Below are positions 8,621 to 45,560 of a stretch of 64,000 nucleotides of DNA, in pieces. The notes beneath the pieces were generated by a model that did not search any database, was not told where the DNA came from, and worked only from the letters and a program-made list of their open reading frames with translations. Origin of the DNA: an uncultured Chloroflexia bacterium (lineage in GTDB: Bacteria > Chloroflexota > Limnocylindria > Limnocylindrales > CSP1-4); assembly GCA_963800795.1 (NCBI GenBank), contig CAWDCJ010000014.1:64942-128941 (forward strand). The letters are read 5' to 3'. The position numbers and the translations under genes were made by a program. How positions within the stretch are numbered: position 1 is the first letter of the stretch; each line of letters begins with the position of its first letter.

Positions 8621-8638
8621 GTCGCGGGGCCGACAAGC

Positions 8639-9346: not shown

Positions 9347-9451
9347 CGCGGGAGGCAGCCGGCCCGGGCGCACGTGGCACGAACTCGGGGCAGACCCGAA
9401 CCGAGGGCGCGCCGCGGAGCGCGCCGGTTTCGTGGGGCGGTCATGGCTGGC

Positions 9452-10009: not shown

Positions 10010-10014
10010 GAGGG

Positions 10015-10347: not shown

Positions 10348-10363
10348 GCGCTATCCTCCGCCG

Positions 10364-10786: not shown

Positions 10787-10789
10787 GCG

Positions 10790-12188: not shown

Positions 12189-12232
12189 CGGCGTTGCTCG
12201 CCTGACGCGGTTCGTCGCCGGGCGTTGCCCGG

Positions 12233-13795: not shown

Positions 13796-13800
13796 CGCGG

Positions 13801-14646: not shown

Positions 14647-14708
14647 GGCGGTCCTCCTGGGACGGGCTGGAGTCGGGCAAGGGTGCCGTCGAGCGCCGCG
14701 GACGTCAA

Positions 14709-14820
14709 GGCGCCGTATCGCGGCGGCGCCGTATCGCGGCGGCGCCGTATCGCGGCGGCGCCGTATCGCGGCGGCGCCGTATCGCGGCGGCGCCATATCG
14801 CGGCAGCACCGTGTCGAGGC
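14709..14820. repeat. 16-bp tandem repeat (GGCGCCGTATCGCGGC): 5 perfect copies, one 1-mismatch copy and one degenerate copy
   Basis: Read directly. Units start at 14709, 14725, 14741, 14757 and 14773 (identical), 14789 (G->A) and 14805 (12/16 match). The array is intergenic, between the D-aminoacylase stop (14857) and the uricase start (14646). The period is not a multiple of 3. Confidence 0.95.
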
Positions 14821-14856
14821 GGCGCGCCGTCCGTTCGTCATCCCGTCGGTCGACGA

Positions 14857-26831: not shown

Positions 26832-27086
26832 TCAGCCGCAGGTGACGCTGATCTTGTCGAATGTGACCGACATGGTGCCGTCTGGGAGCAGCGTGAAGTG
26901 TGCGTTCTCGTGATACGTGATGGTGCTTCCGTCCGATCCTGTCCCGCGCGCGTACTTCCACGGCGTGCAGCCGTTCACCACCGGGGATCCGTGCAGTGCC
27001 AAGCAGGAAGCGGTGCACCAGACCCCACTTCTGAGCGCATCCGCGCCCGGACCACGCGGGTCGGTCTCGCCATTGGCCCAGCGCAT
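26832..27086 (-). CDS. hypothetical small Cys-containing protein (84 aa)
   Basis: Tail of track ORF 26832..27662 from ATG 27086: 'MRWANGETD...WCTASCLALHGSPVVNGCTPWKY...ISVTCG'. Local GC is lower than in the surroundings. No signal peptide or family recognised. Confidence 0.3.
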   Translation of the reverse strand: MRWANGETDPRGPGADALRSGVWCTASCLALHGSPVVNGCTPWKYARGTGSDGSTITYHENAHFTLLPDGTMSVTFDKISVTCG

Positions 27087-27453
27087 CGGTTGGCGACCGA
27101 GTTGGGACGCTGCGCTGGAGGGACCTCGCGGTTTCCCTGCCCCCTGCCGTGGCGCGGATGATGCAACCATTTCCGGCGCGCGGCAAGCGGTCTGCATGCT
27201 CGGGATCGGGCTGGGCCTGCTCGTATCGGGTTCCCGCCGGCATGGCGTCCCCACACCTTCGCCGATACCGTCACGCAACGTCTGAGGCTCGACCGCGTCG
27301 GCCGAGCCGTTGAGCCGGGTGGCGCCAACACCGAAGGGCACGAGATGACGGACTGCTTTAGAACCTGGGCGGTGCCGGGCGAGACTCAGGGCGCGCTGAG
27401 TTGGACGTCGGCGGCACCCGCGGCTGCCTCGACGACCATGCCGACGGGCCTCC

Positions 27454-29871
27454 CTACGAGCCCTGACCACCCGACGTCTCGAGGGCGAGCACCTGCTTCC
27501 CTGTGACCTCGCTCGTCGCCTCGGATCGGAGCCGAGCCGTGATCTCGTCAGGCGGGACCGGTCGACCGATGAAGAACCCCTGGGCGTAGTCCGCCCCGAG
27601 CCGGTCGAGGTATTCGAGCGTGGCCTCGTCCTCGACGCCCTCTGCGACGACCTGCCTGCCAAGGCGGTGCGCGAGGCTCACGACGGACTCGACGATGGCA
27701 GCGTTCTGGCTCTCCATCAACGCATCGGTCACGAAGGATCGATCGATCTTGAGATAGTCCACCGGCAGGTCACGGAGGCGCCCGAGCGAGGAGAATCCCG
27801 TCCCGAAGTCGTCGATGGCCATGCGCACGCCCAGGTTGGCCGCCAGTTCGACGACCGTGCGCGCCTGTTCGGCGCTCTCCAGGAGTCCGTCCTCGGTGAC
27901 TTCGAGCACGATGGCGCGACCAGCGAGGCCGTGACGCCTAAGCGCCGATCGCAAGAGGTCGGGGTACAGGAGGTCCTGGATCGAGTCACGCGACACGTTG
28001 ACGTTCACCCATATGTCCAGCCCGGCGTCGCGCCAAGCACGAGCCTGCGAGCAGGCGAGTTCGAGCACCCGGGCGTCGAGGGCACGCATCAGTCCCATCT
28101 GGTTCGCGAGGGGCAGGAACTCGCTCGGCGAGAGCAGGCCGCGGCTGGGGTGGTTCCAGCGGACGAGTGCCTCGACGGCGGTCGTCGTCCTGCTCAGGCG
28201 TTCGCGGATCGGTTGGTACACGAGCATCAATCCGTCCCCGTCGATCGCCGCCCGCAACGTGGCCAGGGCTGACGCATCGGGTCCCACTTCGTCGAACGAC
28301 GGCTCGTACGATGTCGGTCCCTGGCGGCCGCGCTTGGCCCGGTACATGGTCGTGTCGGCCCGTCGCATGAGGCCGGCCTCGTCGACGGCCCCGCAATCGG
28401 GGAACGTCGCGAGGCCAAAGGCACCGCTGACGGCGATGTCTGTTCCCGACACGACGAACGGGCGTTCCAGGGCCACGTTCGCCCGTCCCACCACCTCGAG
28501 CGCGTGGGCGGCCGAGGTCCCCGGCAGGACGACGGCGAACTCATCGCCACCGAGCCGCGTGACCGTGTCGCTCTCCCGCGCGGACTTCTGCAGCCGCCGA
28601 CCGACCTCCACGAGCAGCGCATCTCCGGCTGCGTGGCCCAGGTTGTCGTTGATCGCCTTGAAGTAGTTCAGGTCCAGGAAGGCGAGCGTGACGGGTCGTC
28701 CGGTGAGCCGGGAGGCCGCGATCTCAACCTGGAGCAGCTCGTGGAGTCGCGTGCGGTTCGGCAGCCCCGTGAGCGGGTCGCGAAGTGCCTGGCGTGCCGC
28801 CCGCTCGGCCGCCTGGGCGTGCTCCCCGAGAAGCGTTGCCTCTGCCTCGCGCCGTTGGTTCTCGTCGACCAGCTGCCGGAACACCACGAGCCCGGTGAGC
28901 AGGGCGGTCAGCAGCGCGAGCGCGGTGATCTCGGAATTGTCGACGGCCGCGGCCGACACGAGCGTCACCAGTCCGAGCCCGAGCATCGCGTAGGGGCCGA
29001 AGCGGCCCAGCGTCAGGGTGTCGCCGGGGACATCGCGGTCCGTGTCGGGCAGCCTCGCGAGACTGGCCCGGGCGGCCAGGACGAAAGTCAGGTCCCCGGC
29101 GAGGTAGATGAGGTCGGACGGGCTGCCGGCGCCATACGACCCGTTGGCCGACTGGATGGCGAACACAACATCGGCAATGAACCACGCTGCGACCGCGACC
29201 ATGAAGAGCGTCAACGCAGCGCGATCCCCCGAGAACGGTCGCCGCGCCGTCACCGTCGCGATCGCGGCCAGCAGGGCGAGATCGCCCAGTGGGTACGCAA
29301 GGGAGATGAGCGTCGTGAGGGTGTCGCCGCCCAGCTGCGCAATCGTGGGCAGCAGCACGAAATGCACGAGCGCCATCCCGCCGCCCACCATGACGATCGC
29401 GACGTTGGACCAGACGCGCCAGGAAAGGAACTCCTTCCTGGCGCTCGCCGTCGGCAAGACCAGCAGCCCGAGGAGCAGGCACGGGTAGGAGGCAAGATAG
29501 AAGGGATCGGCAATCGATGGGAACGGCTGCTGCCCGCCAAGGTCGTACGCGCTGTAGAGGAGATTGCCGACCAGGTTGGCGGTGAGCGCCATCGCGAACA
29601 GGCTCCAGGCGAGCCGTGCCATCCGGCGGGGCTCGCGAGCCACTACCGCAAGGGCAAGCGCGACACCGATGACCTCGGGGGGGACTTCTCCTAGGTCGGA
29701 GAGGATCGTCGCACCTTGGTCGCCCGCGGGGCGAGCCAGGAAGATGCCCACGTAGACGAGCGCATACGCCACGCCGGCGAACGCAAGGACGCCGGTCCAT
29801 CCTCGCCACCACGCCGTGAAGGTGGGTCGATCGAGACGCGGAACCCGAAAGCGCGGTTCGGTCATCACCAT
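27454..29871 (-). CDS. membrane-bound diguanylate cyclase/phosphodiesterase (GGDEF-EAL)
   Basis: ATG at 29871. About 8 N-terminal TM helices. GGDEF domain 'RLGGDEFAV'. EAL domain 'EALVRW', 'EVTE', 'DDFGTGFSSL', 'KIDRSFV'. Confidence 0.9.
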   Translation of the reverse strand: MVMTEPRFRVPRLDRPTFTAWWRGWTGVLAFAGVAYALVYVGIFLARPAGDQGATILSDLGEVPPEVIGVALALAVVAREPRRMARLAWSLFAMALTANLVGNLLYSAYDLGGQQPFPSIADPFYLASYPCLLLGLLVLPTASARKEFLSWRVWSNVAIVMVGGGMALVHFVLLPTIAQLGGDTLTTLISLAYPLGDLALLAAIATVTARRPFSGDRAALTLFMVAVAAWFIADVVFAIQSANGSYGAGSPSDLIYLAGDLTFVLAARASLARLPDTDRDVPGDTLTLGRFGPYAMLGLGLVTLVSAAAVDNSEITALALLTALLTGLVVFRQLVDENQRREAEATLLGEHAQAAERAARQALRDPLTGLPNRTRLHELLQVEIAASRLTGRPVTLAFLDLNYFKAINDNLGHAAGDALLVEVGRRLQKSARESDTVTRLGGDEFAVVLPGTSAAHALEVVGRANVALERPFVVSGTDIAVSGAFGLATFPDCGAVDEAGLMRRADTTMYRAKRGRQGPTSYEPSFDEVGPDASALATLRAAIDGDGLMLVYQPIRERLSRTTTAVEALVRWNHPSRGLLSPSEFLPLANQMGLMRALDARVLELACSQARAWRDAGLDIWVNVNVSRDSIQDLLYPDLLRSALRRHGLAGRAIVLEVTEDGLLESAEQARTVVELAANLGVRMAIDDFGTGFSSLGRLRDLPVDYLKIDRSFVTDALMESQNAAIVESVVSLAHRLGRQVVAEGVEDEATLEYLDRLGADYAQGFFIGRPVPPDEITARLRSEATSEVTGKQVLALETSGGQGS

Positions 29872-30398
29872 CCGGTCGAGACCTCGGCGGAAACGGACTG
29901 GCGCAGTACGAGCACGAGGTGTGTCTCGCACCGGCCGGAACCCATTCCGGCCCCGCGGCACGGCCATTTGGCGTGAGTGTGCTCGCCCGACACGGGCGCG
30001 TCATGACGGCGCGTCATCCCGGCCGGGCTGCCAGCGAGGTGGAGTTCGTCCGCGCTGGTCAACGGCCCTGCAGCCCCGCCGCCCGGAGCGCAGCAGATCC
30101 GCTGGCGACGATCGTCTCGATCCGCGCCCGAAATCCACGCAAGCTCCTTGCGACCTGGAGTGGCCTCTCGAGGAGCAGGCGGGCGGTCGGCGCGGGCCGG
30201 GTCGCTCGTCCCGACTGCCAGGAGAGCGACTGGTCCATCCTCGCCCAGGGTCGGCGCATGCGCGGTCAGGGAACGATGAGGCGCGCACACGATGGTCATA
30301 CATGCGCACCGAGCGAGATCGTCCATGTCCGGATAGTGTCGGCGGCGCCCTGATCGCGGGCATCATGGAGTCGTCCGACATCCCACCCCGGGGGTCCC

Positions 30399-33525: not shown

Positions 33526-34080
33526 GAGCCGGCCGGGCTGGCGGGGTCCCATCGACGTCACGGGCGTGCTCTCCACTTCCCCGAAGCCCCGGAACCCGGC
33601 GAACACCGGCTTTCCCGTGCCTCGACAGGCCGCCGAGAGGGACGTGGGAGCCGCACGACGAACGCCCGTTGGGCGGCGTCGGCGGACCCGTCCGACGACA
33701 CACCGTTGCCCGTCAACTATGCCCCATCACGACCAGTGCCCGTACCCTCGCGCGGCGGCGACGTCATGCGTCCGTTCAGCCGAGTGGATGCACAGTGCGG
33801 GTATCGGCCTGAGTGCGCCGCCCGGCCTCTCAGAGAGCCTCGACCCAGGCGGGTCGAGGCTCGTCCTTCCCCCAGCTCAAATCGGCGAGCAGGGATGGGC
33901 GAGCGAGACGGATCTGCGGCCGACACGATGGGTCCGCACCCCACGGGTACGTCCTCCCGAGCACGAAGGTCGCGGGTGAGAGCGGACGCGCGCCGGGTCT
34001 CAGCAGGTGGCCTCCGGGTTCCCAGCAGCGCCGCGCCGATGCACAATCCGCGGCTGTGTCCCCTTGTATGGAGGTGAGCC

Positions 34081-35205
34081 GTGCTCCTCGCATCCAAGCT
34101 CTCCCGCGTCGCGGCGGTGGCCGCGATCGCGGGCGCCACGCTCGTGCCGGCCGCGACGGTCGCTGCGCACAGTGACTCGAGCGGCGGTCACGCAGCCGTC
34201 AAGCGGATCTTCGTGATCATGCTCGAGAACCACAGCCAGTCGACCGTCATCGGCGACCCGAACGCCCCGTTCATCAACAGCCTCGCGAACACGTACGGAG
34301 AGGCGACCAACTACTACGGCGTCACGCACCCCAGCCAGCCGAACTACGTGGCCGCGATCACCGGCCAGCTCGATATCACCCGGATGAACGACGCGGCGAC
34401 CAACACGTATGCCTGGCCGAACCTCGTCGACCAGCTCGAGGCGAACGGGAAGACGTGGGGCGCCTACATGGACTCCCTGCCCTATGCCGGCTACACGGGC
34501 TACACGGCGCCCGGCACCACGGCCCTCTACACGAACAAGCACGACCCGTTCGTGCTCATGGACGACGTCCTGAACAATCCGGCTCGGCTGGCGAACATCA
34601 AGCCCTACACGAGCCTGGCCGCCGACCTCAACTCGGCGCACGCGCCCGACTTCGTCTGGATCAGCCCCAACCAGTGCAACGACATGCACGGTGGCGTTTA
34701 CTCGACGATCGCCGGGCACCCGGAGACGCCGTGCCCGTACGGCAACACCATCGACGACACGAACAATGCGGCGCTCAAGCAGAAGGCCGACGCCTTCGTC
34801 CAGGGCGCCGTCCAGACGATCCAGAGCTCGAAGGCATGGACCGGCAACAGCGTGATCTTCGTGCTGACCGATGAATCCGACTTCAGCGGCACGGCCACGA
34901 CGACGGACCTGTGGCTCGACGTGAGCGGCTGTTGCGACTCGCCGGGCTACGGCAGCACGCCGGGGCTTCCCTCCGGCACCATCCTGATCGACAACGGCTC
35001 GCACCCCTGGTCGGGCCCCTTCGGCGGTGGCAAGGTCCCCGCGATCGTGATCGCCCGCAACGGGGTCGGCGGGATCAAGGACGCCACGCCCTATAACCAC
35101 TACTCGCTGCTGCGGACCATCGAGGACGTCTGGGGCCTCGGCTATCTTGGCTACGCGGCCGACTCCGCCAACGTCTCGTCGATGACCCCGCTCCTCCAGC
35201 ACTGA
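34081..35205 (+). CDS. secreted phosphoesterase-family protein (PF04185-like), paralog of 7361..8620
   Basis: GTG start and a signal peptide '[19 protein letters not shown]'. '[10 protein letters not shown]', '[10 protein letters not shown]', '[11 protein letters not shown]', '[15 protein letters not shown]'. Confidence 0.85.
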
Positions 35206-35263
35206 CCTCGCGGCGCTTCGAGCGCACGTTGGAAGGGCCCGCTCGCGTGCCGACGAGCGGGCC

Positions 35264-35422
35264 CTCGTAGCCGCGCTCGTGGGCGTCGCGGGCCGCGCTC
35301 GCGACGCCCACGTTGGTTGCGATGCCGGCGAGCAGGATCGTGTCGATGCCGCGCCGACGGAGTTGGAGGTCGAGCTCGGTGCCAATCGCGCGGGCGCCCA
35401 ACACAGACTCGACCACGTTCAA
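35264..35422 (-). pseudogene. internal fragment of an isochorismatase/cysteine-hydrolase family gene
   Basis: '[40 protein letters not shown]' matches the conserved core of the family. A TGA lies directly upstream. The fragment is squeezed into the 328-bp gap between two intact genes. Confidence 0.5.
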
Positions 35423-35533
35423 GGGCGGTCGTCATTCTGTAGAGATGAGCCAGGCAGACCGGGGCCCGATGCGGCTCGACCGCGACGACAGGGCGCGAGG
35501 GCTCGATCGCCCACGCATCCCCAGGAGGTTGAC

Positions 35534-36382
35534 ATGGCCGTTGGCGGGTATCAGCGAACCTGTGCGCGGTGCCACCACACGTGGTTCGTCCCCACGGACA
35601 TCGCAGAGGAACGGCCGAACCTGAAGGCGACCACGAGCCAGTACCTGTCGGCTCTCGGGAGCGTCCAGGACCAGGCCGCGCTCCGCGCGCATTACCAACA
35701 GCTTGCGGCTGCCGCGAAGTGCCCCCAGTGCGGTGCCACGTCCTTCACCCAGGAGGAGGCCCCGGAGTCGCCCACGTCGCCCGAACCGCCATCCACGCTG
35801 GCTACGGGCGCTCCCCAGGCGTCAGCGGTGCCGGACGGCCAGACCCCCATCTACGTCCTCAACCAGAAGCTGATCTCGCTGACGGGCGATCTCTGGATCG
35901 AGGACGGCCAGGGGAACCACGCCTTCGAAGTCGATGGCAAGCTCCTCAGCCTGCGCGGCACCCACGTGCTCAAGGACCTGGGCGGCCAGGCGCTCTACGA
36001 GATCTCGAAGCCGCTCGCCCCGCACCTGCACAAGACCATCGTCATCACGAAAGGCGGCCAGACGGCAGCGACCGTCCAGGAGGCGATCCTTCACCTGGGG
36101 GGTGACAAGTTCAAGATCACGCTCGCCGGCGGTCAGGATCTGACGGTCCACGGCGACTGGTGGAACCGCGAGTTTCAGGTCAAGGACCAGGCAGGCCGGG
36201 TGGTCATCGATGCCTCCCGGGCCTGGTTCAGCATCCACGACGCGTACGGGATCCAGATCGCGCCCGGCTTCGAGGTGCCCCTCGGTCTCGCAATCGTTGT
36301 GGCCCTCGAGCGCGTCGAAGTCCAGGAGCAGGGTGAGCAGTCACCGCTTCGGAACCTGCTCGGAGGCATCGGTCCCTTCTGA
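35534..36382 (+). CDS. zinc-ribbon + LURP-one-related/DUF567 (tubby C-terminal-like) fusion protein
   Basis: ATG at 35534 after AGGAGG. N-terminal 'CARCHH...CPQCG' motif, then a Pro/Ser linker. C-terminal domain has 'IYVLNQKLISLTGDLWIEDGQGNHAFEVDGK...FKITLAGG...IDASRAWFSIHDAYGIQI', typical of PF04525. Confidence 0.7.
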   Translation: MAVGGYQRTCARCHHTWFVPTDIAEERPNLKATTSQYLSALGSVQDQAALRAHYQQLAAAAKCPQCGATSFTQEEAPESPTSPEPPSTLATGAPQASAVPDGQTPIYVLNQKLISLTGDLWIEDGQGNHAFEVDGKLLSLRGTHVLKDLGGQALYEISKPLAPHLHKTIVITKGGQTAATVQEAILHLGGDKFKITLAGGQDLTVHGDWWNREFQVKDQAGRVVIDASRAWFSIHDAYGIQIAPGFEVPLGLAIVVALERVEVQEQGEQSPLRNLLGGIGPF

Positions 36383-39068
36383 GCGTGGCTCCCGTGGTCC
36401 CGCCGAATGTGATGCATGCAGGCATTTGAGAACTGCGGGCGATCTCCCGTGCCATCCACGGCCGGAGCGTTCGCGTGGTCAGGTTGTTCTGGCGCGCCCG
36501 GAGGGCATCGGGCGCGCGAACAACAAGCGTGATCGGGCAGTGGAGAGTTCGTCGACGCTCTCTGGGCCGCACGGAGCCCGGGCGCCGGCTTCCGGCATGG
36601 GGAGATCTGGGCGGGGCGATGAGAGTCACCGTGTCGGGGCAAGAAGGCCCTCCGCCGTCAGGTCTGACGCCGGCGCGGCGGTCCGGTTCGCGCGGGTCAG
36701 CTCCCCGGAGCTCGATGCTCTCGTCGAGATCGCGAGCAGTTCGCGGCGTCACGGCGGCGCGGATGACGGGCGCGGGGTTTGGCGGCTGCACGATCAACCT
36801 CGTGGAGCGCGACGCCGTGGAATCGCTCGGGCGGCCGGCCCGGAGCAATACCCGGCCCGGACTGGCCCTCACGCGCCGGGTCCTCGCCGTCGACGAGGTG
36901 GCCGGTGCGGGGGCACTCGACAGTCGAACCGCCTCATCGACGCCGGCCGGGGCGCTCACACCCACGAGCTCAACATCTGCGTACAGATGGCGGGAGATCA
37001 CGTGATCCTGGTATTCGGGCGCCAGCTCGCAGAAGTAGCCGCTCCAGCCCCAGACTCGGACGATCAGGTCGCGGTGCTCCTCCGGATGCGCCCTCGCGTC
37101 GAGGAGCTGCTCCGCATTGAGGGCATTGAGTTGCAGCTGCTGGCAGCCGAGCCGGGCGAACGTGCGTACCAGCAGGGCGACCTTGCGGATCAATTCCGCG
37201 TCGGCGAAGAGCGCGGCGGATAGCTCCAACGTGATCGGACCCCCGTTGCAGACGCGCCGGTAGTCGATTCCGGCGTAGGACTGCAGGACGCTGATCGGTC
37301 CGCGCAGGTGGGTCCCCGGCGTGGGGGCGAGATTGGCCCCGAACGGGTCCCCCTTCCGGCGCCCATCGGCGGTCGCACCCACCATGGGCTCCGCGAGCGG
37401 CCCATCGTCGCGGCCGCGGGCGAGCCAAAGGTAGTACATCGCGGACCCGGTTCCGGGCCGCACGATCGCGCCGGATTGCGGATGCTCCCCCTCACAGGCA
37501 TCGGCCAGCCGATCGTACAGCCAACGCACGAGGTCGTCGGCGGCAGGCTCGTTCAGGCCGACTCGCGAGCTCTCCTCCGCAAGACGCCACCGAAGCACCT
37601 GATGGCCGACGAAGTCCGCCTCGAGCGCAGCGAGAAGCTCCGCACGGTCCACGTCGGCGAGCTCGAAGACGTGCCGGCGAACGGCCGCCAGGGCGTCGGC
37701 AGCGCTGGCGGCTGCCGCTCCGTGGATCCCCAGGTTCCGGTACCGAGCGCCCTGACCGTGATCGACGCCCGTCTCGAGCGCGTCGGTCATCAGCACCGAG
37801 TAGTACGGCGCCGGCGCCCACAGGATCCGATCGTACGGAGCGGTGCGTTCGTGAACCTGGCGCCCGATCTCGGCACCCGTGCGAGCCAGGATGGCGTCGA
37901 ACGAGGCGCCCTCTGCGAGTCCCGTCCGGACCGCGATGTCGGCGGCCGCCGGGAAAGAGACGGCGCCGATGTTGACGACGTCCATCCCGCGACCAGGAAT
38001 GATGAACTCCCAGCACGCCGCCACCGTGTAGTCGCGCGCGTCCTCGAGCGCATAGCCGTGCGCGGCAAGCGCGGGGATGACGACGTCGTCGTTGGCGTAC
38101 TGGGGGAAGCCGAGGCCCTTGCGGGTGAGGTCGCTGGCCAGCTCGAGGAGCGCAAGGTCCGTCTCGCCCGTGATCCGCAGGTTGACCTTCGGATCGATGA
38201 GCCCAACGTCGCGGGCGACCCGCAGCGCCATCCACGTGAGCGGGTTGACGGCCGAGCCGCCGTCGCGCGTCAGCCCCCCGAGCGTGATGGTCTGCCCGTT
38301 GTCGCCCTGCTGGATGCCGGGGTAGAGGTCGGCATCGCGATTGAGCGCGATGAAGAACTCCGCCAGCAGCTCCTCGGCGGCGGCGATCTCCAGCGCTCCC
38401 GCCGCGAGGTCGGCGGCAAGGAACGGCCACAGGTACTGGTCGAGGCGACCGAGGCCCACGTGATGGTGCCCGGACAGCCAGACCACGGCGTGCAGCAGGC
38501 GGAGCGCCTGCAGCGCTTCACGGAATGTTCGCGGCGGCTCCCCCGGGACGCGCTCGAGGACGCTGGCGACGTCGTCCCTGCCGAGCCTGCGCGCCTCCGT
38601 CGCGTAGCGGGCGGCGAGCGCGAGCACGGCGTCGATCGTCTCGATCGCGGCGTCGAGGAACTCGACCGCCGCGATGTTCCCCGCTGACGCCATCCGCGAG
38701 CGCGTCGCGCCTGCCACTCGACGCCGCCCACCAAGCCCCTGCCGAAGCGCCAGCTCCCAGTCGGCGCACACGTTGTTGATCAGGCCGCCTTCGTGGAGCG
38801 TTCGCCCCAGGGTCAAGGCAGCGTCGTCCGCGGGCGAGTGGACCGGGGGAACCGCCCGCAGAGTCCGCGTGAAGACGATCCGCTCGTCGGGCTCGATGAC
38901 CACGATCTCGGCCTCGCACATCCGGCGGGTCAGACGCGCCATGCGCCTCGGCCACGACAGCTGTTCGTGGTCGCATTCGGCCACGAGATCGGGCCCGCCG
39001 GCCTGGCGGTACCCGCGAAAGTGGCCTTCGCGGGTTCGGGCGCGGAGCCCTTCAAGTCGGTCGTTCAT
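36228..39068 (-). CDS. glycyl radical enzyme (PFL2/dehydratase-like class), short form; C-terminal boundary anomalous
   Basis: ATG at 39068 overlaps the activase stop (ATGA). Glycine-loop 'LIVRVWGWSGYFCEL...QDHVISRH' lies at ~36987-37060. The candidate thiyl loop is 'YTVAACWEFIIPG'. Homology ends about 10 codons after 'ISRH' (~36950-36980). The ORF has no stop until 36228 and runs antisense through the galK remnant. Confidence 0.85.
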   Translation of the reverse strand: MNDRLEGLRARTREGHFRGYRQAGGPDLVAECDHEQLSWPRRMARLTRRMCEAEIVVIEPDERIVFTRTLRAVPPVHSPADDAALTLGRTLHEGGLINNVCADWELALRQGLGGRRRVAGATRSRMASAGNIAAVEFLDAAIETIDAVLALAARYATEARRLGRDDVASVLERVPGEPPRTFREALQALRLLHAVVWLSGHHHVGLGRLDQYLWPFLAADLAAGALEIAAAEELLAEFFIALNRDADLYPGIQQGDNGQTITLGGLTRDGGSAVNPLTWMALRVARDVGLIDPKVNLRITGETDLALLELASDLTRKGLGFPQYANDDVVIPALAAHGYALEDARDYTVAACWEFIIPGRGMDVVNIGAVSFPAAADIAVRTGLAEGASFDAILARTGAEIGRQVHERTAPYDRILWAPAPYYSVLMTDALETGVDHGQGARYRNLGIHGAAAASAADALAAVRRHVFELADVDRAELLAALEADFVGHQVLRWRLAEESSRVGLNEPAADDLVRWLYDRLADACEGEHPQSGAIVRPGTGSAMYYLWLARGRDDGPLAEPMVGATADGRRKGDPFGANLAPTPGTHLRGPISVLQSYAGIDYRRVCNGGPITLELSAALFADAELIRKVALLVRTFARLGCQQLQLNALNAEQLLDARAHPEEHRDLIVRVWGWSGYFCELAPEYQDHVISRHLYADVELVGVSAPAGVDEAVRLSSAPAPATSSTARTRRVRASPGRVLLRAGRPSDSTASRSTRLIVQPPNPAPVIRAAVTPRTARDLDESIELRGADPREPDRRAGVRPDGGGPSCPDTVTLIAPPRSPHAGSRRPGSVRPRERRRTLHCPITLVVRAPDALRARQNNLTTRTLRPWMAREIARSSQMPACITFGGTTGATLRRDRCLRAGSEAVTAHPAPGLRRARGPQRLRDRGAPRSRARSGSRTRRGC
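36487..36920 (+). pseudogene. decayed C-terminal part of a galactokinase (GHMP kinase) gene
   Basis: Fragments in shifting frames: 'RRRSLGRTEPGRRLPAWGDLGGAM', 'VSSPELDALVEIA', 'AARMTGAGFGGCTINLVERDAVESL', 'VLAVDEVAGAGAL'. These follow the order of GalK motifs (HVVTEN / GDL..LM / PELD / GARMTGAGFGGC). There is no N-terminal half. Confidence 0.6.
36488..36654 (+). repeat. copy B of an imperfect ~140-170-nt dispersed direct repeat (partner at 47592-47733)
   Basis: Exact shared blocks are TCTGGCGCGCCCGGAGGG (36488-36505 = 47592-47609) and ACAACAAGCGTG (36520-36531 = 47626-47637). Collinear GCCGCACGG, GATGA(R)(W)GTCAC and CCCTCCG blocks follow, and copy B has a ~32-nt insertion. Copy B also folds as GTTGTTC-TG-GCGCGCCCG/CGGGCGCGC-GAACAAC. 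Confidence 0.8.
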
Positions 39069-39820
39069 GCCACTCGCACCTCGATACCCGCTCGCTGGAA
39101 AGGACGCACGTCCGCGTTCGGCGCCCGGTCCTCGTCGAACCCCGGCAGGAAGGTTCGCCCACAGGCGGCGTACTTCCCGCCGGCCGCGCGGTTGTACGGC
39201 AGGAGGTCGACTCGCACCAGGGTCGGCTGCGATGCCACCGCGGCGGCGATCGCCGCGAGGTTGGCGTCGGTGTCGGTCACTCCCGGCACGAGCGGCACGC
39301 GGGCCACGAACGGTCGTCGAAGCTCCGCCAGCAGCCCGAGGTTGCGCAGGATCGGCGCATTGTCCTGGCCGGTCCAGCGCCGGTGGGCGACCCGATCCAT
39401 CAGCTTCAGGTCGAAGTACACCAGGTCGGCGCGTCGGGCGAGCGCCACGAAATGGCCCCGCGTGCCGAAGCCGGACGTGTCGAGCACGATGTGAACACCC
39501 GGCAGGAGGTCGATGACCTCCGCCACGAAGGCGGCCTGGGCAAGCGGCTCGCCGCCGGAGAACGTCACCCCGCCCTCGTTGGAGGCCAGGATGCTCGCCT
39601 GCCGAGAGAGGAGCTCGGCGAGTTCCGCGGCCTCATAACGCCGGCCCACCGTTCGGTCGCCCGTCGACGAACGCATGACCTGCGGGGCAGGGTCCAGCCC
39701 CTCGGGGTTGTGGCACCAGGCGCAGGCCAGGGGGCAGCCTTTCAGGAAGACGGTCGTCCGCATCCCGGGCCCATCGTGGATCGTGAACTCGCGGACGTCG
39801 AAGACGATCCCGGCCGTCAT
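39065..39820 (-). CDS. glycyl-radical enzyme activating protein (radical SAM, PflA-like short form)
   Basis: ATG at 39820 gives 251 aa. 'FTIHDGPGMRTTVFLKGCPLACAWCHNPE' (CxxxCxxC) and 'GGVTFSGGEPL'. There is no additional Cys-rich ferredoxin-like insert. Confidence 0.9.
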   Translation of the reverse strand: MTAGIVFDVREFTIHDGPGMRTTVFLKGCPLACAWCHNPEGLDPAPQVMRSSTGDRTVGRRYEAAELAELLSRQASILASNEGGVTFSGGEPLAQAAFVAEVIDLLPGVHIVLDTSGFGTRGHFVALARRADLVYFDLKLMDRVAHRRWTGQDNAPILRNLGLLAELRRPFVARVPLVPGVTDTDANLAAIAAAVASQPTLVRVDLLPYNRAAGGKYAACGRTFLPGFDEDRAPNADVRPFQRAGIEVRVA

Positions 39821-39857
39821 GGCTGCCGGTCCCAGGAAGCACCCGGCGTCAGGTCGC

Positions 39858-41009
39858 TCACCGCCGGGGCGCTCCGGCCGCCGCTGGAAAGGTCCGACCC
39901 TGGATCGTCTCGACCATTGCCCAGAAGTTCTCCATCGGCGTATCCAGCTGGACGTGGTGGGTGGGCCCCAGGATGAGGCCACCGCGCCGGCCGATCGTGT
40001 CCAGTCGGGTCCGGACCTCGGCCTGCACGTCCGCGGGCGAGCCGAAGGGCAGGGTGTGCTGCTCGTCGAGCGAGCCCCAGAAGCACAGACGGTCACCGAA
40101 GCGGCGCTTCAGCTCGGCTGGATCCAGGCAGGCCGGTTGGACCGGGTTGAGGACGTCGAGGCCGATCTCGATGAGGTCCGGGATGACGTCCCAGATCATC
40201 CCGTCCGAGTGGTATGCAACCTTGACGGCGGGGTTGATCGACTTGACGCGGGCGATCAGCTCGGCCATCCGCGGCTTGAGGTGGCGGCGCCAGAGCGCCG
40301 GGGAGATCAGCATGCCCGTCTGCATTCCGACGTCGTCGCCGGTCCAGATCATGTCGACGCCCATCGACGTGAGGCGCTCTGCGGCCCGGAGGTGGTACCG
40401 GAACGGGATCTCCAGTATCGCCTCCGCGATGTCCGGCTCCGTCACGAGGTCGATCATCAGCTGCTCGAATCCGCGCAGCGCCCAGGCCGTCTCCCAGATG
40501 GTGGTGACCGTGACACCCACGATGTAGTACTCGCCGCCGAACTGCGCGATGACACGCCCGGCTTCCTGATAGAGCTCGGGCCGGTCGGGATCCGGAGCCC
40601 GGTAGGAGGCGATCGCGGCGTCGCTGGCAAGCGGCCTGCCGACCATCTCGGTGTAGTGGCCCAGGCCGAACGGGGTCTCGTAGGGCTGGGCGCGCCAGGT
40701 CACGCCCCATTCGTCCGTGTAGATGTCGGTGCCCTGGTAGTACGAGTTCGCCCAGCCGACCGAGGTGAGGAGGAGATCCTCGTCAAGGGCGAGCTCCAGC
40801 TCGTACGTGTTGCCGCCGCCGTGCGGGTTATGGCTGCCGGGACCGGACCGGGCAACCAGGCCGCGCGCCTCGAGGTCCGACCGCAATCGCACGGCGAACT
40901 CCGGCGTGAAGCTGATCTGCATCGGGCAGTGGTCGAGCGCTTCGTGATGGAGCGCGGCGATCACGCGATCGCGGTGTCGCACCGGGGTCGTCCACGGGTT
41001 GTCGTTCAC
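39858..41009 (-). CDS. uroporphyrinogen-decarboxylase (URO-D) family protein of unknown specificity
   Basis: 383-aa ORF. The TIM-barrel pattern 'DMIWTGDDVGMQTGMLISP...YHSDGMIWDVIPDLIEIGLDVLNPVQP...GGLILGPTHH' is typical of PF01208 members outside haem synthesis. Its stop lies 37 bp upstream of the activase start. Confidence 0.8.
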   Translation of the reverse strand: MNDNPWTTPVRHRDRVIAALHHEALDHCPMQISFTPEFAVRLRSDLEARGLVARSGPGSHNPHGGGNTYELELALDEDLLLTSVGWANSYYQGTDIYTDEWGVTWRAQPYETPFGLGHYTEMVGRPLASDAAIASYRAPDPDRPELYQEAGRVIAQFGGEYYIVGVTVTTIWETAWALRGFEQLMIDLVTEPDIAEAILEIPFRYHLRAAERLTSMGVDMIWTGDDVGMQTGMLISPALWRRHLKPRMAELIARVKSINPAVKVAYHSDGMIWDVIPDLIEIGLDVLNPVQPACLDPAELKRRFGDRLCFWGSLDEQHTLPFGSPADVQAEVRTRLDTIGRRGGLILGPTHHVQLDTPMENFWAMVETIQGRTFPAAAGAPRR

Positions 41010-41301
41010 CGCGTCAGTGTGGCAGCGTCAACCCGCGGCGTGGGTCCTGGCGGTGGCGTGACGCACGGAGCGGTGCCCGCGGAGCCGGGCAACGCCGTAG
41101 AGTGACCCCGGTACACGGCGAGTCCGCGGGCCGTCCGGGGACGCTGGAGAGCCCCTTCTGACCGCACGAGAGCGCATTCGGCGCGCCGTCGCCCACGAGG
41201 AGGCCGATCGCGTCCCGGTCGACCTCGGATCGTCGATAGGCGGCCGGTCCATGCATGCGTCGGAGAATCGCGCTCCTGCAGCAGGGCCGCCAGATCCATG
41301 C

Positions 41302-42418
41302 TCAGGCGCCCCTCTGCTGCGGCGACGCTCCATTGTGGCTCTCGAGCGGCCCATGCCGGGAGGCCGGTTCGAGATCGGTCGGACAGGCGGCGGTCGACTG
41401 CCGAACGACGAGCTCGGGCCGGAACATGCGCCCGCGTGCGGGCCCGCGTCCTGTGGTCTCGCCGCCCTCGATGTCGGTGTCGCCTTCGGCTCCGCCCGCC
41501 GCGCCGACCGCCAGGCCGACCGCCGCGGCTGCCATCTCGGCCATCGGCATTCGCACGGTCGTCAGCGCCGGCACCGTGAACGTGGCCATCGGGATGTCGT
41601 CGAACCCGACGACCGAGAGGTCATCAGGGACACGGATGCCCAGGACGAGGGCCCCACGGAGGATCCCGATCGCCAGGACGTCAGTCGATGCGACGATGGC
41701 CGTCGGCCGCGGCGAAAGGCGCATCAAGGCGCGGAACGCTTCTTCGCCGTCGCCCGGCGTGTTGGCCACCTGCTGGACGTAGCCGGGCGGAACCTCGCCG
41801 AGGAGGTTGGTCAGCGCCTCCGTGTAGGCCTCCTGGCGCTCCCGAATATCGCCGAGCAACCGACCTCCGACGAACGCGATCCGACGATGCCCGAGGGAGC
41901 CGAGGTGGTCCATGGCCGTCGCGATCCCGCCCCGGTTGTCCACGCTGACACCGGGAATGAGGTCGAGCTCCGAGCCCTGCCACAGGGCGACGACCGGCAC
42001 GTGCGTGTCGCGCAGGTCGTCAAGCAGACGCTGCTGGTCGCCCATGTCGCCCAGCAGCAGGATCGCGTCGCACTGGCGTGCCTCGAGCATGGCCGCCAGG
42101 GCGTGCGCCTCGGTGGCCTCCGCGTGCGCGTGGCCCAGGACGATGTTGTAGCCACGCGCCCGGGCCTCGGCCGAAACGGCCTCGATCGCCCCCGCGAAGA
42201 ACGGGTCCGTGATATCGCGGACGATGGCGCCGAGCAGCATCATCGGCGCACCGCGCAGGGCCCGGGCCAGCGGGTTGGGCCGGTAGCCCACCGCTCGGGC
42301 GGCGGCCAGGACGCGCTCGCGAGTCGCCGGCCGCGATCGGCACGCTCAACGGGGCGTCGCTGAGGATCCGCGAGACCGTGCTGCGCGAGACACCGGTCGC
42401 GGTCGCGATGTCCCGCAT
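41302..42418 (-). CDS. LacI-family transcriptional regulator; frameshifted as given
   Basis: ATG at 42418. HTH 'TMRDIATATGVSRSTVSRILSD' is in one frame. 'ATRERVLAAARAVGYRPNPLARALRG...' and the sugar-binding core are in another frame from ~42325-42334. Confidence 0.85.
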
Positions 42419-42525
42419 CGTGACCGGCCGGGCGCGGGCTCGCGGTTGGACGGATCGTTCGTCGAGCGACGCCCGAGTCGCCGCGTCGGCGCGTCGCCCG
42501 CTGGCCGTTTGTGCAGCCGCCATCG

Positions 42526-43530
42526 CTACTCGAACCGGCGCCGGAGCAGGGCGTGGACCGCAACCGCAGCGAGGATGACGGCGCCGTAGATGAAGTTGGT
42601 GTAGTAGTCGGTCAGGCCGACCGCAACAATCCCGGCCTGGATGGCGCCGATCATGAACGCGCCGAGGAACGTGCCATAGATCGTGCCTCGGCCCCCGAAC
42701 ACGGAGGTCCCGCCGACGAAGACGGCGGCCAGCGTCGGGAGCTGGAAACCGTCGCCCATCGTCGGGTAGAAGTTGACGATCTGGAAGCTGTTCATCAGGC
42801 CGGCCAGCGCCGCCGCCACCCCGGTGAGGACGAACAGGAGGATGCGAGTCCGGCGCATGGGGATGCCCATGAGCCCGGCAGCCAGGCCGTTGTCCCCGGT
42901 GACGTACGCGTTCTGCCCGAGCCGGTGGCGGTTGAGGAGCACCCACGCGACGACCGCGAGGGCCAGGAGCCAGACGAACTCCATCGGGACGACGCCCCCA
43001 AGCTTCCCGACGAGCAGGTCGTACGACGGGGCAGTGCTGGCCGTGACCAAGGCATAGCTCTTGCCGTTGACGAGCACGAGGGTCAGGCCGCGGAAGAGGT
43101 ACCAGCTGCCGATCGTCGCGACGAGCGCGGGGATGCCGATGTACGTGACGACGAGACCATTGAACAGGCCGGCCAGGGCACCGACGCCGAGCGCCGCGAC
43201 GATCCCGAGCTCGACGCTGCCGGTCGCCTGCCAGGTGAAGACGAAGCCGACCATGCCAAGGGCCATTTCCGACGGGAAGGAGAGGTCGATGTCGCCGGCG
43301 ATGACGACCATCGTCAGAAACAGGGCGACGATCGCGATGTACGGGACCGTCTGGGCGAAGGCCAGGTAGATGCGGTCGGACAGGAACGTGCTGGGAGCGA
43401 GGACGACGAACGCGATCCAGAGCGCGAGGAACGCGACGGTGATGCCGATCTGGGACGCCCAGGAGTTGGTGAACGCGGTGAGGCGACCGCGGGGTCGCGG
43501 CGGCGGCGTCGTGGCGACGGCGGGGTTCAT
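42526..43530 (-). CDS. sugar ABC transporter permease (CUT2/RbsC-like, BPD_transp_2)
   Basis: 334-aa polytopic ORF. 'IDLSFPSEMALGMV', 'GDNGLAAGLMGIPMRR', 'GGTSVFGGRGTIYGT'. The ATG overlaps the ATPase stop (ATGA). Confidence 0.9.
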   Translation of the reverse strand: MNPAVATTPPPRPRGRLTAFTNSWASQIGITVAFLALWIAFVVLAPSTFLSDRIYLAFAQTVPYIAIVALFLTMVVIAGDIDLSFPSEMALGMVGFVFTWQATGSVELGIVAALGVGALAGLFNGLVVTYIGIPALVATIGSWYLFRGLTLVLVNGKSYALVTASTAPSYDLLVGKLGGVVPMEFVWLLALAVVAWVLLNRHRLGQNAYVTGDNGLAAGLMGIPMRRTRILLFVLTGVAAALAGLMNSFQIVNFYPTMGDGFQLPTLAAVFVGGTSVFGGRGTIYGTFLGAFMIGAIQAGIVAVGLTDYYTNFIYGAVILAAVAVHALLRRRFE

Positions 43531-44477
43531 TCGTGCTCCTCGCCGGCCGCGGCCGTTGCCGTGGGTGGCTTGTCTGCCCCGCGGTAGCGTTCCTGTTCGG
43601 TGAAGGTTCCCTCGGCGGCGACCTCGCGCATGATGTCCAGGAGCTCCTCCAGCGAGTAGCGTGAGGTCGGGAACTGGCCGGCCACGCGTCCGCGGTCGAG
43701 GACGATGATCCGGTCCGCGACCGAGTAGACGTGGAAGATGTTGTGGTCGATGAAGATCGCCGATTTGCCGGCGGTCCGGATACCCTCCACGAACCGCAGC
43801 AGCTTCTCGGTCTCCTTGAGCGACAGGCCCATGGTCGGCTCGTCGAGGATGATGATGTCGGCCTGGAAGTGCAGCGCCCGCACGATTGCCAGGCCCTGCC
43901 GCTCACCGCCGGACAGCCCCTTGACCACGGTGTCCGGGGTCAGCACGGCGGAGGTGAAGCCCATCGACTCGCTCATGAGCTGGGCTGTCATCCGGCGCAT
44001 GTCGCCGACCTTGAGGAAGCCGAGCCGACCGGCGACGGCACGGCCCATGAAGATGTTGCGCCAGAGGGGGAGCTGGTCGGCGAGCGCGCGCTCCTGGTAG
44101 ACGGTCTCGACGCCGAGATCCCGCGCCTTCTGGACGGTCAGGCCATCGACCCGCTTGCCCCCGAAGAAGATCTCGCCCGAATCCGGGCGGTGAACCCCGG
44201 TGATGATCTTGATGAGCGTCGACTTGCCCGCGCCGTTGTCGCCGAGCAGGCCGACGACCTCACTCGCCCCGAGGTCGAGGCTGACGTCCTGGAGGACGTG
44301 GACACCCCCGAACAACTTCGAGATGTGGCGCAGCTCGAGCCGCTTCTCGCTCCCCGGCGGTGGCACCGCCGCGGGCTCGAGCGCGGCAATGATTGGGACC
44401 GCGGGTTGCGTCGGCGGGCGAGCGCTCCCGCGCTCGCCCGCCGACTTGCCGGACTCGGCGGCAGGCGGAACAGTCAT
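43527..44477 (-). CDS. sugar ABC transporter ATP-binding protein (single NBD)
   Basis: Walker A 'GDNGAGKST', signature 'LSGGERQ', Walker B 'IIILDEPT'. It starts 4 nt after the binding-protein stop. Confidence 0.9.
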   Translation of the reverse strand: MTVPPAAESGKSAGERGSARPPTQPAVPIIAALEPAAVPPPGSEKRLELRHISKLFGGVHVLQDVSLDLGASEVVGLLGDNGAGKSTLIKIITGVHRPDSGEIFFGGKRVDGLTVQKARDLGVETVYQERALADQLPLWRNIFMGRAVAGRLGFLKVGDMRRMTAQLMSESMGFTSAVLTPDTVVKGLSGGERQGLAIVRALHFQADIIILDEPTMGLSLKETEKLLRFVEGIRTAGKSAIFIDHNIFHVYSVADRIIVLDRGRVAGQFPTSRYSLEELLDIMREVAAEGTFTEQERYRGADKPPTATAAAGEEHE

Positions 44478-44480
44478 TGC

Positions 44481-45560
44481 CTAGCGGATCTGATCGGTCA
44501 CGAGCGGCGCGATGGCGTCGATGTTCGTCTTGTCAACGAAACCCGCGCCGGTGTTGATGAAGAGTCCGCCGAAGCCGAACTTCTTGCTCAGACAGAGCTG
44601 CTCGACGGCAAAGAAGCCCTGGAGGAACTCCTGCTGGTCGATGACCAGGCTGATGTAGCCGTCCTTGATGCCCTGGACCGTGGCCGGCGACATGTCGAAG
44701 CCGGCAGCGTAGATGCTACCGGGCTGGAGGTTCGCGGCCTTCATGAACGTCGGGATGGCCGAGGTGAGGTTGCCGTGGTCGATGAAGATCGCCTTGACGC
44801 CCGGGTGCGAGGAGATGTAGCCGGTGAAGGTCGGCACGCCATTGGCGGCGTCCTTGTTCGTGGCGTCGTCGATCTCGTAGTAGTCAACCTTCATGCCGGC
44901 AGCCGTGAGCGTGTCGGTGATCCCCAGGGTTCGCTCGCCGCGGCCCGGCTGAGCCTTGAGGCCCCAGACCATCACCTCATCACCCGACTTGAGGTTGCCG
45001 CGCTTGATCGCCTCGTTGGCGAGGGACGCGCCCGCGTCATGCAGGACCGCGCCGACGTAGCCCATGCCGCTGGACGCAAACTGGGCCTCGGCCTTCGGGA
45101 GCTCCGTGTTCATGACGGTGACGAGGATGCCCTGCTTCTCCGCGTCCTGGATGAGCGGATCGAAGGCGTCGTCACCCGGGTGACCCATGACGGCGATCCC
45201 GTCCGGCTTCGTGGCGACTGACTGCTGGAACTGGGTGATCATCTTGTTGGGGTCCCAGTCGGACCACTGGTATGTCACGTCGGGTCCGAAGGCCGCCTGG
45301 GCAGCCTTTGCACCGTTGTAGACGACCGTCTCAAAGCCACCGCCTGGGGTCCCGCCGGGGAAGAAGGTGATCTTCATTCCCGAGCAGAACTGGCCAGCCA
45401 CGGGCGCAGCCGAGCCGGCAGCCGCCGGCGATGCTGCGCCGGCCGCTGCACTCGCAGCGGGCGACGGGGTGCTGGATGAGTTGCAGGCGCTGATTACCAG
45501 CACCGCGGCAAACGCCAGCGCTGGCAACCGTCGCGGAACGTGCGTCCCAGATCGAGCCAT
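44481..45560 (-). CDS. sugar ABC transporter substrate-binding lipoprotein (type I periplasmic binding fold)
   Basis: ATG at 45560 after GGAGGAG. Lipobox 'LVISAC', an Ala/Ser linker, then an RbsB-like fold ('KITFFPGGTPGGGF', 'GIAVMGHPGD', 'AIFIDHGNLT'). Confidence 0.85.
   Translation of the reverse strand: MARSGTHVPRRLPALAFAAVLVISACNSSSTPSPAASAAAGAASPAAAGSAAPVAGQFCSGMKITFFPGGTPGGGFETVVYNGAKAAQAAFGPDVTYQWSDWDPNKMITQFQQSVATKPDGIAVMGHPGDDAFDPLIQDAEKQGILVTVMNTELPKAEAQFASSGMGYVGAVLHDAGASLANEAIKRGNLKSGDEVMVWGLKAQPGRGERTLGITDTLTAAGMKVDYYEIDDATNKDAANGVPTFTGYISSHPGVKAIFIDHGNLTSAIPTFMKAANLQPGSIYAAGFDMSPATVQGIKDGYISLVIDQQEFLQGFFAVEQLCLSKKFGFGGLFINTGAGFVDKTNIDAIAPLVTDQIR

Follow-up and report, generated by a model that had tools for sequence, protein, structure and literature searches.

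A family of short Cys-x-Glu glycyl radical enzymes with single-cluster activases, found beside L-arabinose genes in Chloroflexota and other bacteria

What would a glycyl radical enzyme (GRE) do in an arabinose locus? The question is raised by a 64-kb stretch of DNA with a G+C content of ~70% from an uncultured Chloroflexia bacterium (contig CAWDCJ010000014.1; hereafter, the window), in which a URO-D-fold gene, a radical S-adenosylmethionine (SAM) activase gene and a GRE gene stand next to genes for L-arabinose isomerase and a CUT2-type sugar transporter. The original prediction, made from the sequence alone, had read the three genes as a possible new GRE pathway for a pentose-derived or other imported substrate. 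Our analysis found this interpretation partly right: the GRE is linked to sugar genes and has a minimal activase, but the URO-D protein is not its obligate partner. At roughly 55%, we consider it somewhat more probable than the contrary that the activase and GRE are a working pair of an uncharacterised family of ~700-aa enzymes, the 'short ACWE' GREs, that serves the anoxic utilisation of L-arabinose. The best reading of the GRE itself is a Cys-x-Glu radical C-O lyase whose substrate would be L-arabinose, or a close derivative of it, after import.

The arrangement of the genes was as first described. All three are close together and co-directional on the minus strand, with a 37-bp gap between the URO-D-fold and activase genes and an ATGA overlap between the activase and GRE genes, and lacI, the CUT2 permease, ATPase and binding-protein genes and araA were all located upstream on the same strand (Table 1). 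The four Pfam families looked for (PF02901, PF01228, PF04055 and PF01208) were matched in the expected genes. Both loops of the GRE could be read: the cysteine loop is AAC352-W-E354-F, with a single catalytic cysteine, and the glycine loop is RVWG674WSGYF, in which RVWG674W conforms to the RVxG[FWY] motif of the GRE superfamily. The estimate of about 700 conserved residues agreed with the homologues closest to the window, which are 699 residues long; the window's core is 96% identical to one of these, P0001. The structure of P0001 was predicted using AlphaFold2 from a 100-sequence alignment (predicted local distance difference test, pLDDT, 95.1) and was found to contain the ten-stranded β/α barrel of the GRE superfamily, of the pyruvate formate-lyase (PFL) type. 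Foldseek superposed the model on CutC, the glycerol and propanediol dehydratases, PflD, HypD and HpzG with template modelling (TM) scores of 0.85-0.88 and sequence identities of 21-25%. Given equally good superposition on CutC, glycerol dehydratase, PflD and HypD, the short ACWE GREs form a branch of their own within the Cys-x-Glu (CXE) GREs. A search of 1.8 billion cluster representatives returned further GREs of 640-710 aa, 37-50% identical to that of the window, which make up a broader clade with the signature motifs AACWEF, QGDNGQ, RPGTGSA, NGGP(I/L)T and RVWGWSGYF. Cys352 and Glu354 were kept by at least 90% of the sequences in the 100-sequence alignment.

The GRE failed every NCBIfam equivalog model considered (PflD, HypD, CutC, HpsG, HpfG, IAD, HPAD and PFL) by a factor of at least 4. 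It scored ~240 bits against a cut-off of 1109 for PflD, 222 against 1100 for HypD, 214 against 1050 for CutC and 219 against 1000 for HpsG, and both Pfam and NCBIfam placed it on the PFL2/glycerol-dehydratase branch (PFL2-3 subfamily model, 270 bits; cut-off, 678). With all of these cut-offs missed, the enzyme lies outside the characterised isofunctional families, as the original prediction had supposed. No member of the short ACWE clade is included in a 2026 review of GREs, and our literature searches on GREs with arabinose, arabinofuranosidase, URO-D or corrinoid, and on corrinoid/URO-D systems with O-methyl sugars or Chloroflexi, returned nothing on the family. According to that review, the CXE motif is common to the 1,2-eliminases and to the sugar isomerases YbiW and PflD, and CXE enzymes abstract a hydrogen beside a hydroxyl that is deprotonated by Glu, and then cleave an adjacent C-O, C-N or C-S bond. 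The short ACWE GREs share the CXE motif, the fold and the expected ketyl-radical elimination with the eliminases CutC, glycerol/propanediol dehydratase, HypD and IslA. They differ from the eliminases in their low identity, in being ~100 residues shorter, in their own signature motifs and in loci that are devoid of microcompartment and aldehyde-dehydrogenase genes. Annotations at JGI and NCBI label the homologues pyruvate formate-lyase or formate C-acetyltransferase. That these labels are correct is hardly credible, as the loop has Ala-Cys in place of the Cys-Cys pair of PFL, the PFL model TIGR01255 gave 50 bits against a cut-off of 994, and the genes lie among sugar genes.

PflD and YbiW are GRE isomerases that act as C-O lyases on 1,5-anhydromannitol-6-phosphate and 1,5-anhydroglucitol-6-phosphate, and the window's GRE could be an ether-cleaving isomerase of this type, with an anhydro-sugar such as an anhydro-pentitol, not arabinose, as its substrate. 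PflD is its best sequence match among solved structures (213 bits), Cys352 and Glu354 align with the Cys and Glu of PflD's GCVE, and both are sugar-active CXE enzymes; barrel, glycine motif, single Cys with Glu and placement in a sugar-uptake operon are likewise shared, and the substrates of PflD and YbiW are carbohydrates. We nevertheless regard this alternative as quite improbable. The score lies far below the PflD cut-off, and in fold CutC and glycerol dehydratase are as near to the enzyme as PflD is; identity to PflD is ~30% locally and 24% by structure, the window's enzyme is ~75 residues shorter at its N-terminus, and it has Cys-Trp-Glu where PflD has Cys-Val-Glu. Moreover, short ACWE loci import free sugar by ABC or major facilitator superfamily (MFS) transporters, whereas PflD and YbiW are supplied with phosphorylated sugar by a phosphotransferase system (PTS). 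No PTS, anhydro-sugar kinase or FSA-type aldolase was seen nearby, and arabinofuranosidases and AraABD are found instead. We know of no natural source of anhydro-pentitols.

A pattern scan of one genome per GTDB species identified at least 456 genomes with a relative of the GRE. The counts given below refer to the best 80 of these 456 loci (all from metagenome-assembled genomes, MAGs) or to the 56 species-level loci that cover 15 kb or more; neighbouring genes were annotated by BLAST against reference proteins of known Pfam content, and further recurrent clusters, limited to those free of overlap with annotated genes, were assigned by Pfam. The carriers belong mainly to Chloroflexota (Limnocylindria-like 'Chloroflexia' and Anaerolineae), and also to Acidobacteriota, Planctomycetota, Verrucomicrobiota, Kiritimatiellota, Lentisphaerota and Treponemataceae. 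Soil Chloroflexota MAGs are the nearest relatives of the window. The GRE motifs also occur in a 42%-identical sister clade, whose members come from metagenomes of the human gut, the rumen, termites and bioreactors.

The claim of a minimal activase held well beyond the window. The window's activase contains four cysteines in total, i.e., those of the CPLACAWC motif and one other, and has no ferredoxin-like insert. It matched TIGR02494 at 202 bits (cut-off, 174), in two pieces with the insert skipped, and the PFLA model at 148 bits; this cognate CX3CX2C activase resembles PflA in its size (~250 aa), its one CX3CX2C cluster and its lack of a ferredoxin-like domain, but is nearer in sequence to the activases with two extra clusters. 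All 80 family activases examined are of the single-cluster kind, with zero to two cysteines in the 90 residues after the motif, and zero or one in 79 of them. The same stretch has four cysteines in PflC and six in YbiY of E. coli, and about half of the sister-clade activases keep the insert, with 7-10 cysteines. The ferredoxin-like insert with two auxiliary [4Fe-4S] clusters that is typical of eliminase-type activases is therefore missing from the family. Its absence in 80 of 80 activases makes the minimal activase a trait of the family, and its retention in half of the sister clade and in PflC and YbiY indicates that this form arose when the insert was lost.

An activase gene was present in 55 of the 56 larger loci, and was adjacent to the GRE gene in 74 of 80. 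A CUT2 binding protein and permease were found in 36 of the 56, and 34 carried at least one of AraA, AraB, AraD, GH51 and GH127. As a rule, the Anaerolineae loci read LacI, substrate-binding protein (SBP), ATPase, permease, in some cases a transglutaminase, three URO-D genes, a corrinoid protein, activase and GRE, followed in about half by AraA with AraB and/or AraD. Some 20 loci of this type have activase-GRE-AraA, usually followed by AraB and/or AraD, and four have the full AraA-AraB-AraD set. The window's own clade has the order AraA-SBP-ATPase-permease-LacI-AraD-AraB, three URO-D genes, and activase-GRE-galK-galT, and a third Chloroflexota clade has AraA-SBP-permease-ATPase-activase-GRE with no URO-D. 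Planctomycetota and Verrucomicrobiota possess an operon of LacI-GH127-SBP-ATPase-permease-activase-GRE-GH51-GH51. In Acidobacteriota, GRE and activase lie beside GH51, a mutarotase, an MFS sugar transporter, a short-chain dehydrogenase/reductase (SDR) and a zinc-dependent alcohol dehydrogenase, and also beside a lactonase-like protein (of metallo-β-lactamase fold or similar to dienelactone hydrolase) and a homologue of 2-keto-3-deoxy-galactonokinase (DGOK). Among 77 sister-clade loci, 61 had an activase, 29 an MFS sugar transporter, 26 an aldose 1-epimerase, 14 a GH127 and 14 a GH51. The recurrent operon there is AraC-type regulator-activase-GRE-MFS-mutarotase-GH127, and three contigs contain a bare mutarotase-activase-GRE-MFS module amid housekeeping genes.

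Since araA, GH51 and GH127 are each rare within a genome, their repeated appearance less than 10 kb from the GRE, across several phyla and in two deeply split clades, would be far beyond chance. The suggested link to an imported pentose was strengthened, in that L-arabinose genes recur beside the GRE in at least six bacterial phyla and in the 42%-identical sister clade. The GH51 and GH127 glycosidases of these loci carry signal peptides, and free monosaccharide should therefore reach the cytoplasmic GRE. The relatives of the CUT2 binding protein in the PDB are ribose-, arabinose- and furanose-binding proteins, and the bound sugar was not resolved by the PDB matches of the binding proteins. AraA of the related locus L001 has the AraA_N, AraA_central and Arabinose_Iso_C domains. 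An Rfam scan at the cassette found no riboswitch.

GH127 enzymes release β-L-arabinofuranose from hydroxyproline-linked arabinosides, and the GRE could be a dehydratase of the hydroxyproline type that takes part in breaking down extensin or arabinogalactan protein. The co-located GH127 genes, and the CXE motif that HypD-like enzymes also have, agree with this proposal, which we hold to be very improbable: the HypD score is about as far below its cut-off as the others given above, the transporters are of monosaccharide type (CUT2 and MFS Sugar_tr) under LacI or GntR regulators, mutarotase and AraABD are present, and no proline-pathway genes were seen in the mapped loci.

Two further proteins recur in these neighbourhoods. 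A divergently transcribed gene for a transglutaminase-core protein (3957-4874 in locus L003, and in 24 other loci) separates the ABC permease gene from the URO-D trio in nearly all loci of the Anaerolineae type. In 17 gut-metagenome loci (L100-L114 and L168; e.g., 6670-10227 in L114) a protein of ~1185 aa with no Pfam match is encoded convergently to the sister-clade GRE, adjoining GH51 and mutarotase genes.

If the GRE does act on L-arabinose or a close derivative, the reaction could proceed as follows. Secreted GH51 and GH127 arabinofuranosidases would free L-arabinose, which in the window would be taken up by the adjacent CUT2 ABC system. Cleavage of SAM by the activase would place a radical on Gly674, from which it would pass to Cys352. 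The Cys352 thiyl radical would then take a hydrogen from a hydroxyl-bearing carbon of the sugar while Glu354 deprotonates that hydroxyl, and the resulting ketyl radical would eject the oxygen substituent of the neighboring carbon, either a hydroxyl or the ring oxygen. On regaining a hydrogen from Cys352, the product radical would yield a deoxy-keto or deoxy-lactone pentose. Three versions of this scheme may be considered. In the first, which is a weakly favored guess and improbable taken singly, hydrogen is abstracted from C1 of L-arabinopyranose and the 2-OH is lost to give 2-deoxy-L-pentono-1,5-lactone; this would explain the mutarotase, lactonase-like hydrolases and SDRs in Acidobacteriota. 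In the second, which is equally possible, the substrate is L-ribulose, the product of AraA, which would explain the araA-transporter-activase-GRE operons. A third, in which L-arabinonate undergoes radical dehydration to a 2-keto-3-deoxy acid, also fits and would explain the DGOK-type kinase.

Several observations weigh against assigning the pair to arabinose. Ten of the 56 loci have neither arabinose nor ABC genes, and the reaction is inferred from gene context and motif. AraA, AraB and AraD already make up a complete non-radical route for arabinose, which leaves the need for a radical enzyme unexplained; the AraABD pathway has the same locus, importer and regulator as the GRE and needs no radical enzyme, and the GRE must open a side or alternative route. 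Co-location could reflect another sugar that accompanies arabinose in plant polymers. The host also carries an O2-dependent uricase in addition to the O2-sensitive GRE, and the combined loss of the GRE stop codon, lacI frameshift and araD deletion described below may have made the enzyme useless in this particular strain.

The URO-D-fold gene, which directly precedes the pair as first noted, was expected to be a third member of the pathway. In the window it is 64% identical to the middle paralogue of the Anaerolineae trio. Alignment to MtaA (4ay7), its best though weak structural match, placed His267-x-Asp269...His351 at the Zn-ligand positions, where MtaA has His-x-Cys...Cys; at least 95% of 34 orthologues share this H-x-D...H arrangement, and the paralogues designated 'bd' have His-x-Cys...His. 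The 'd'-type URO-D had no sequence match in the PDB. The window's protein scored 60 bits against the MtaA/CmuA model TIGR01463 (cut-off, 235), and its resemblance to HemE was confined to a Pfam-level match, with UroD matches in the PDB of 18-22 bits. It therefore belongs with neither HemE nor MtaA/CmuA by these measures. Like MtaA and CmuA it has the URO-D fold, and in Anaerolineae the trio adjoins a DxHxxG B12-binding protein as in three-component methyltransferases; the window's URO-D differs from MtaA and CmuA in its ligand pattern, in the company of sugar ABC genes instead of aromatic or methylamine genes, and in the lack of a corrinoid protein in the window. No B12-binding protein, and hence no three-component corrinoid system, was found in the 64 kb. 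Among the relatives, a corrinoid protein occurs in 26 of 80 loci and in 20 of the 56 larger ones, and that of Anaerolineae has both B12-binding domains and the DxHxxG motif.

URO-D, activase and GRE might all the same constitute a single three-enzyme pathway, with URO-D acting on the substrate or product of the GRE; in a Chloroflexota version, URO-D and the corrinoid protein would demethylate an O-methyl pentose, and the GRE with AraABD would consume the product. The co-directional genes and short gap would be expected of such a pathway, as would the purifying selection on URO-D, the ~24 loci in which the trio lies directly upstream of activase-GRE, between the sugar ABC genes and AraABD, and the corrinoid protein that mostly accompanies the trio (in 20 of the 56 loci). 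We judge this pathway unlikely. Of the 56 loci, 29 have a URO-D gene no more than 10 kb from the GRE, and 24 of these 29 have at least three copies, but 27 have none, and in the sister clade only 3 of 77 loci have one. None of the mapped loci of Planctomycetota, Verrucomicrobiota and Acidobacteriota has a URO-D gene closer than 3.5 kb to the GRE; outside Chloroflexota, a single URO-D was found, in the Kiritimatiellota locus L053, where it lies on the opposite strand at a distance of ~4 kb. Synteny of the triad, proposed as a check in the original prediction, was thus upheld for the activase-GRE pair, which is kept across phyla, and failed for URO-D, which stands beside the pair only in Chloroflexota. 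Furthermore, the window retains one of the three paralogues, and URO-D of the same type (~70% identical) occurs with a corrinoid protein and CUT2 genes but no GRE, in the order SBP-ATPase-permease-unknown-corrinoid-URO-D-HoxEFUYH...URO-D-URO-D-EamA-DUF1638. One such GRE-free locus shares metagenome assembly ERZ25039462 with a GRE locus that has no URO-D, an overlap at the level of the assembly and not shown to be one of a single genome. Because the pair occurs without URO-D and URO-D/corrinoid without the GRE, URO-D is no general partner of the GRE and belongs to a separable, methyltransferase-like module; the window's copy is the one survivor of its three paralogues.

The GRE-free loci, which lie in related Chloroflexota MAGs (L088, 4419-11101; L089, 3-3816; L091, 4307-11119), contain genes for a CUT2 transporter, a 316-aa protein, a corrinoid protein and URO-D, followed directly downstream by those for a HoxEFUYH-like [NiFe] hydrogenase of the NAD-reducing kind. 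By virtue of the URO-D fold, corrinoid partner and monosaccharide transporter, they encode a candidate corrinoid-dependent demethylase for methylated sugars, and the Anaerolineae URO-D/corrinoid module likewise resembles a methyl-transfer, perhaps sugar O-demethylating, system.

While the core of the GRE is intact, its reading frame has lost its stop codon. The open reading frame (ORF) has 946 codons and runs to 36228, and 120 of 120 homologues among the matches listed are shorter. Full-length homologues mostly end after residue 694-699, five sequences ending in ...R(H/S)L(Y/F)A-x-x. The conserved part closes with ...RHLYADV at residue 699, and codon 700 of the window is GAG where its relatives have TGA; the relatives' 3' end reads ...GTN TGA, and the TGA of the window is out of frame. 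Compared with L002, the window reads as having lost 1 nt here; compared with L019, its closest relative, it reads as having gained 13 nt and then lost 1 nt. The tail overlaps the remaining 82 codons of galK in antisense, and its GC content by codon position is flat (0.71/0.72/0.69) compared to 0.76/0.49/0.87 in the core. In L174 (3786-7119), a sister strain assembled independently by JGI, the same stop was lost by a TGA to CGA change, giving an 853-aa product (P0402), and galK is frameshifted and split into two ORFs. Two different mutations thus read through into the same downstream frame, and the two tails differ by frame-shifting indels, which argues that the tail is not a conserved protein. 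A sequencing artefact as the cause was considered and partly rejected, since L174 lost the same stop by another mutation and since a 13-nt insertion and kilobase-scale deletions are atypical of read errors. The stop loss is probably real and recent, and appears to fall in a lineage with a decaying convergent galK.

Erosion extends to the neighboring genes. Relative to L019, 1.87 kb comprising araD and a second, divergent URO-D paralogue (URO-D_b) has been deleted, with ~50 bp in its place at the junction (41237-41292). Relatives carry a full galK-galT at the downstream end; in the window, galT, the third URO-D paralogue (URO-D_c) and most of galK are gone and unrelated genes stand in their place. 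Homology to galK-galT stops at 36695, beyond which lie a LURP-one-related gene (35186-36382) and a phosphoesterase gene (34078-35205). The galK remnant was found by tblastn with residues 199-279 of the 280-residue GalK of L002, and its letters include ...MTGAGFGGCTINLV... The lacI gene contains a 1-nt insertion between its helix-turn-helix and sugar-binding domains that is absent from L001, L019 and L002; it could lead to constitutive expression or be an assembly error.

The window's cassette may therefore be dying, in that the unstructured 247-residue tail disables the GRE now or will soon do so, and that the surrounding pathway has been deleted. We consider this a serious, though clearly less probable, alternative to a working pair. 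The stop loss, the deletion of araD and URO-D_b, the reduction of galK to 82 codons, the absence of galT and URO-D_c, the lacI frameshift and the parallel loss in L174 all speak for it. However, the core has kept each of its 699 codons and all of its motifs, and activity may survive a C-terminal extension; single-base lesions are also possibly errors of long-read assembly. For the GRE core, the ratio of non-synonymous to synonymous substitution rates (dN/dS) was 0.15 even when L019, at 96% identity, was used for comparison, and more distant relatives gave 0.14-0.17; values were similar for the activase (0.16-0.18) and URO-D (0.14-0.17). The concern that the GRE might prove to be a decayed pseudogene was hence justified as to the stop codon and the neighborhood, and unfounded as to the core, whose 699 codons are, by these ratios, under purifying selection.

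The features of the locus are collected in Table 1.

Table 1. Coordinates of the cassette and adjoining genes in the 64-kb window.
Feature	Position	Strand	Remarks
Galactokinase remnant	36679-36921	+	C-terminal 82 codons only, with GAGFGGC motif; convergent to GRE
Read-through tail of GRE ORF	36228-36971	−	247 codons and stop; no protein conservation
GRE, 699 conserved codons	36972-39068	−	PF02901, E 3e-80; PF01228, E 3e-16
GRE residues	Cys352, 38013-38015; Glu354, 38007-38009; radical Gly674, 37047-37049	−	
Activase (radical SAM)	39065-39820	−	251 aa; CX3CX2C at 39713-39736; PF04055 and PF13353
URO-D-fold gene	39858-41009	−	383 aa, 'ae' paralogue type; PF01208, E 4e-27
LacI-family regulator	41302-42523	−	+1 frameshift near 42325; two tblastn pieces in different frames
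CUT2 ABC permease (BPD_transp_2 type)	42526-43530	−	88% identity to L001 permease; PF02653
ABC ATPase	43527-44477	−	90% identity to L001 ATPase; PF00005
CUT2 periplasmic monosaccharide-binding protein	44481-45560	−	96% identity to L001 protein; PF13407
L-arabinose isomerase AraA	45812-47317	−	94% identity to L001 AraA

Elsewhere in the window, a urate/glyoxylate cluster spans 5659-16188. The uricase that had been noted in the host was located there at 13801-14856 (−), together with an amidohydrolase (14857-16188, −), a malate synthase (12233-14161, −), an OHCU decarboxylase domain in an ORF ending near 9452 (−), a thiamine pyrophosphate enzyme (5659-7371, +) and a DUF3830 protein (10115-10786, +). 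A match to the c-di-GMP-II-GAG riboswitch (RF03169) at 27050-27135 (−), with 40.6 bits against a gathering score of 40, sits just downstream of a GGDEF-EAL gene (27454-30000, −).

Glycyl radical enzymes perform hard steps of anaerobic metabolism, and newly assigned families have revealed pathways for choline, hydroxyproline, sulfonates and anhydro-sugars. On the most far-reaching view, the short ACWE GREs would be an unrecognised class with a new anaerobic route for L-arabinose, extending from soil Chloroflexota and Acidobacteriota to gut Bacteroidota, and the URO-D trio with its corrinoid protein would be the first corrinoid-dependent O-demethylase for methyl sugars; that both parts hold is a tentative proposition, and rather unlikely. 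The family is represented in at least 456 species genomes, has a sister clade in the human gut and is currently mislabelled as pyruvate formate-lyase. Its activase offers a natural case of an eliminase-type GRE with a minimal single-cluster partner. Its placement among genes for arabinofuranosidases, arabinose transport and AraABD provides a narrow, testable substrate hypothesis for a very abundant plant sugar, and the URO-D/corrinoid/sugar-ABC module provides a second testable lead, the anaerobic demethylation of O-methyl sugars.

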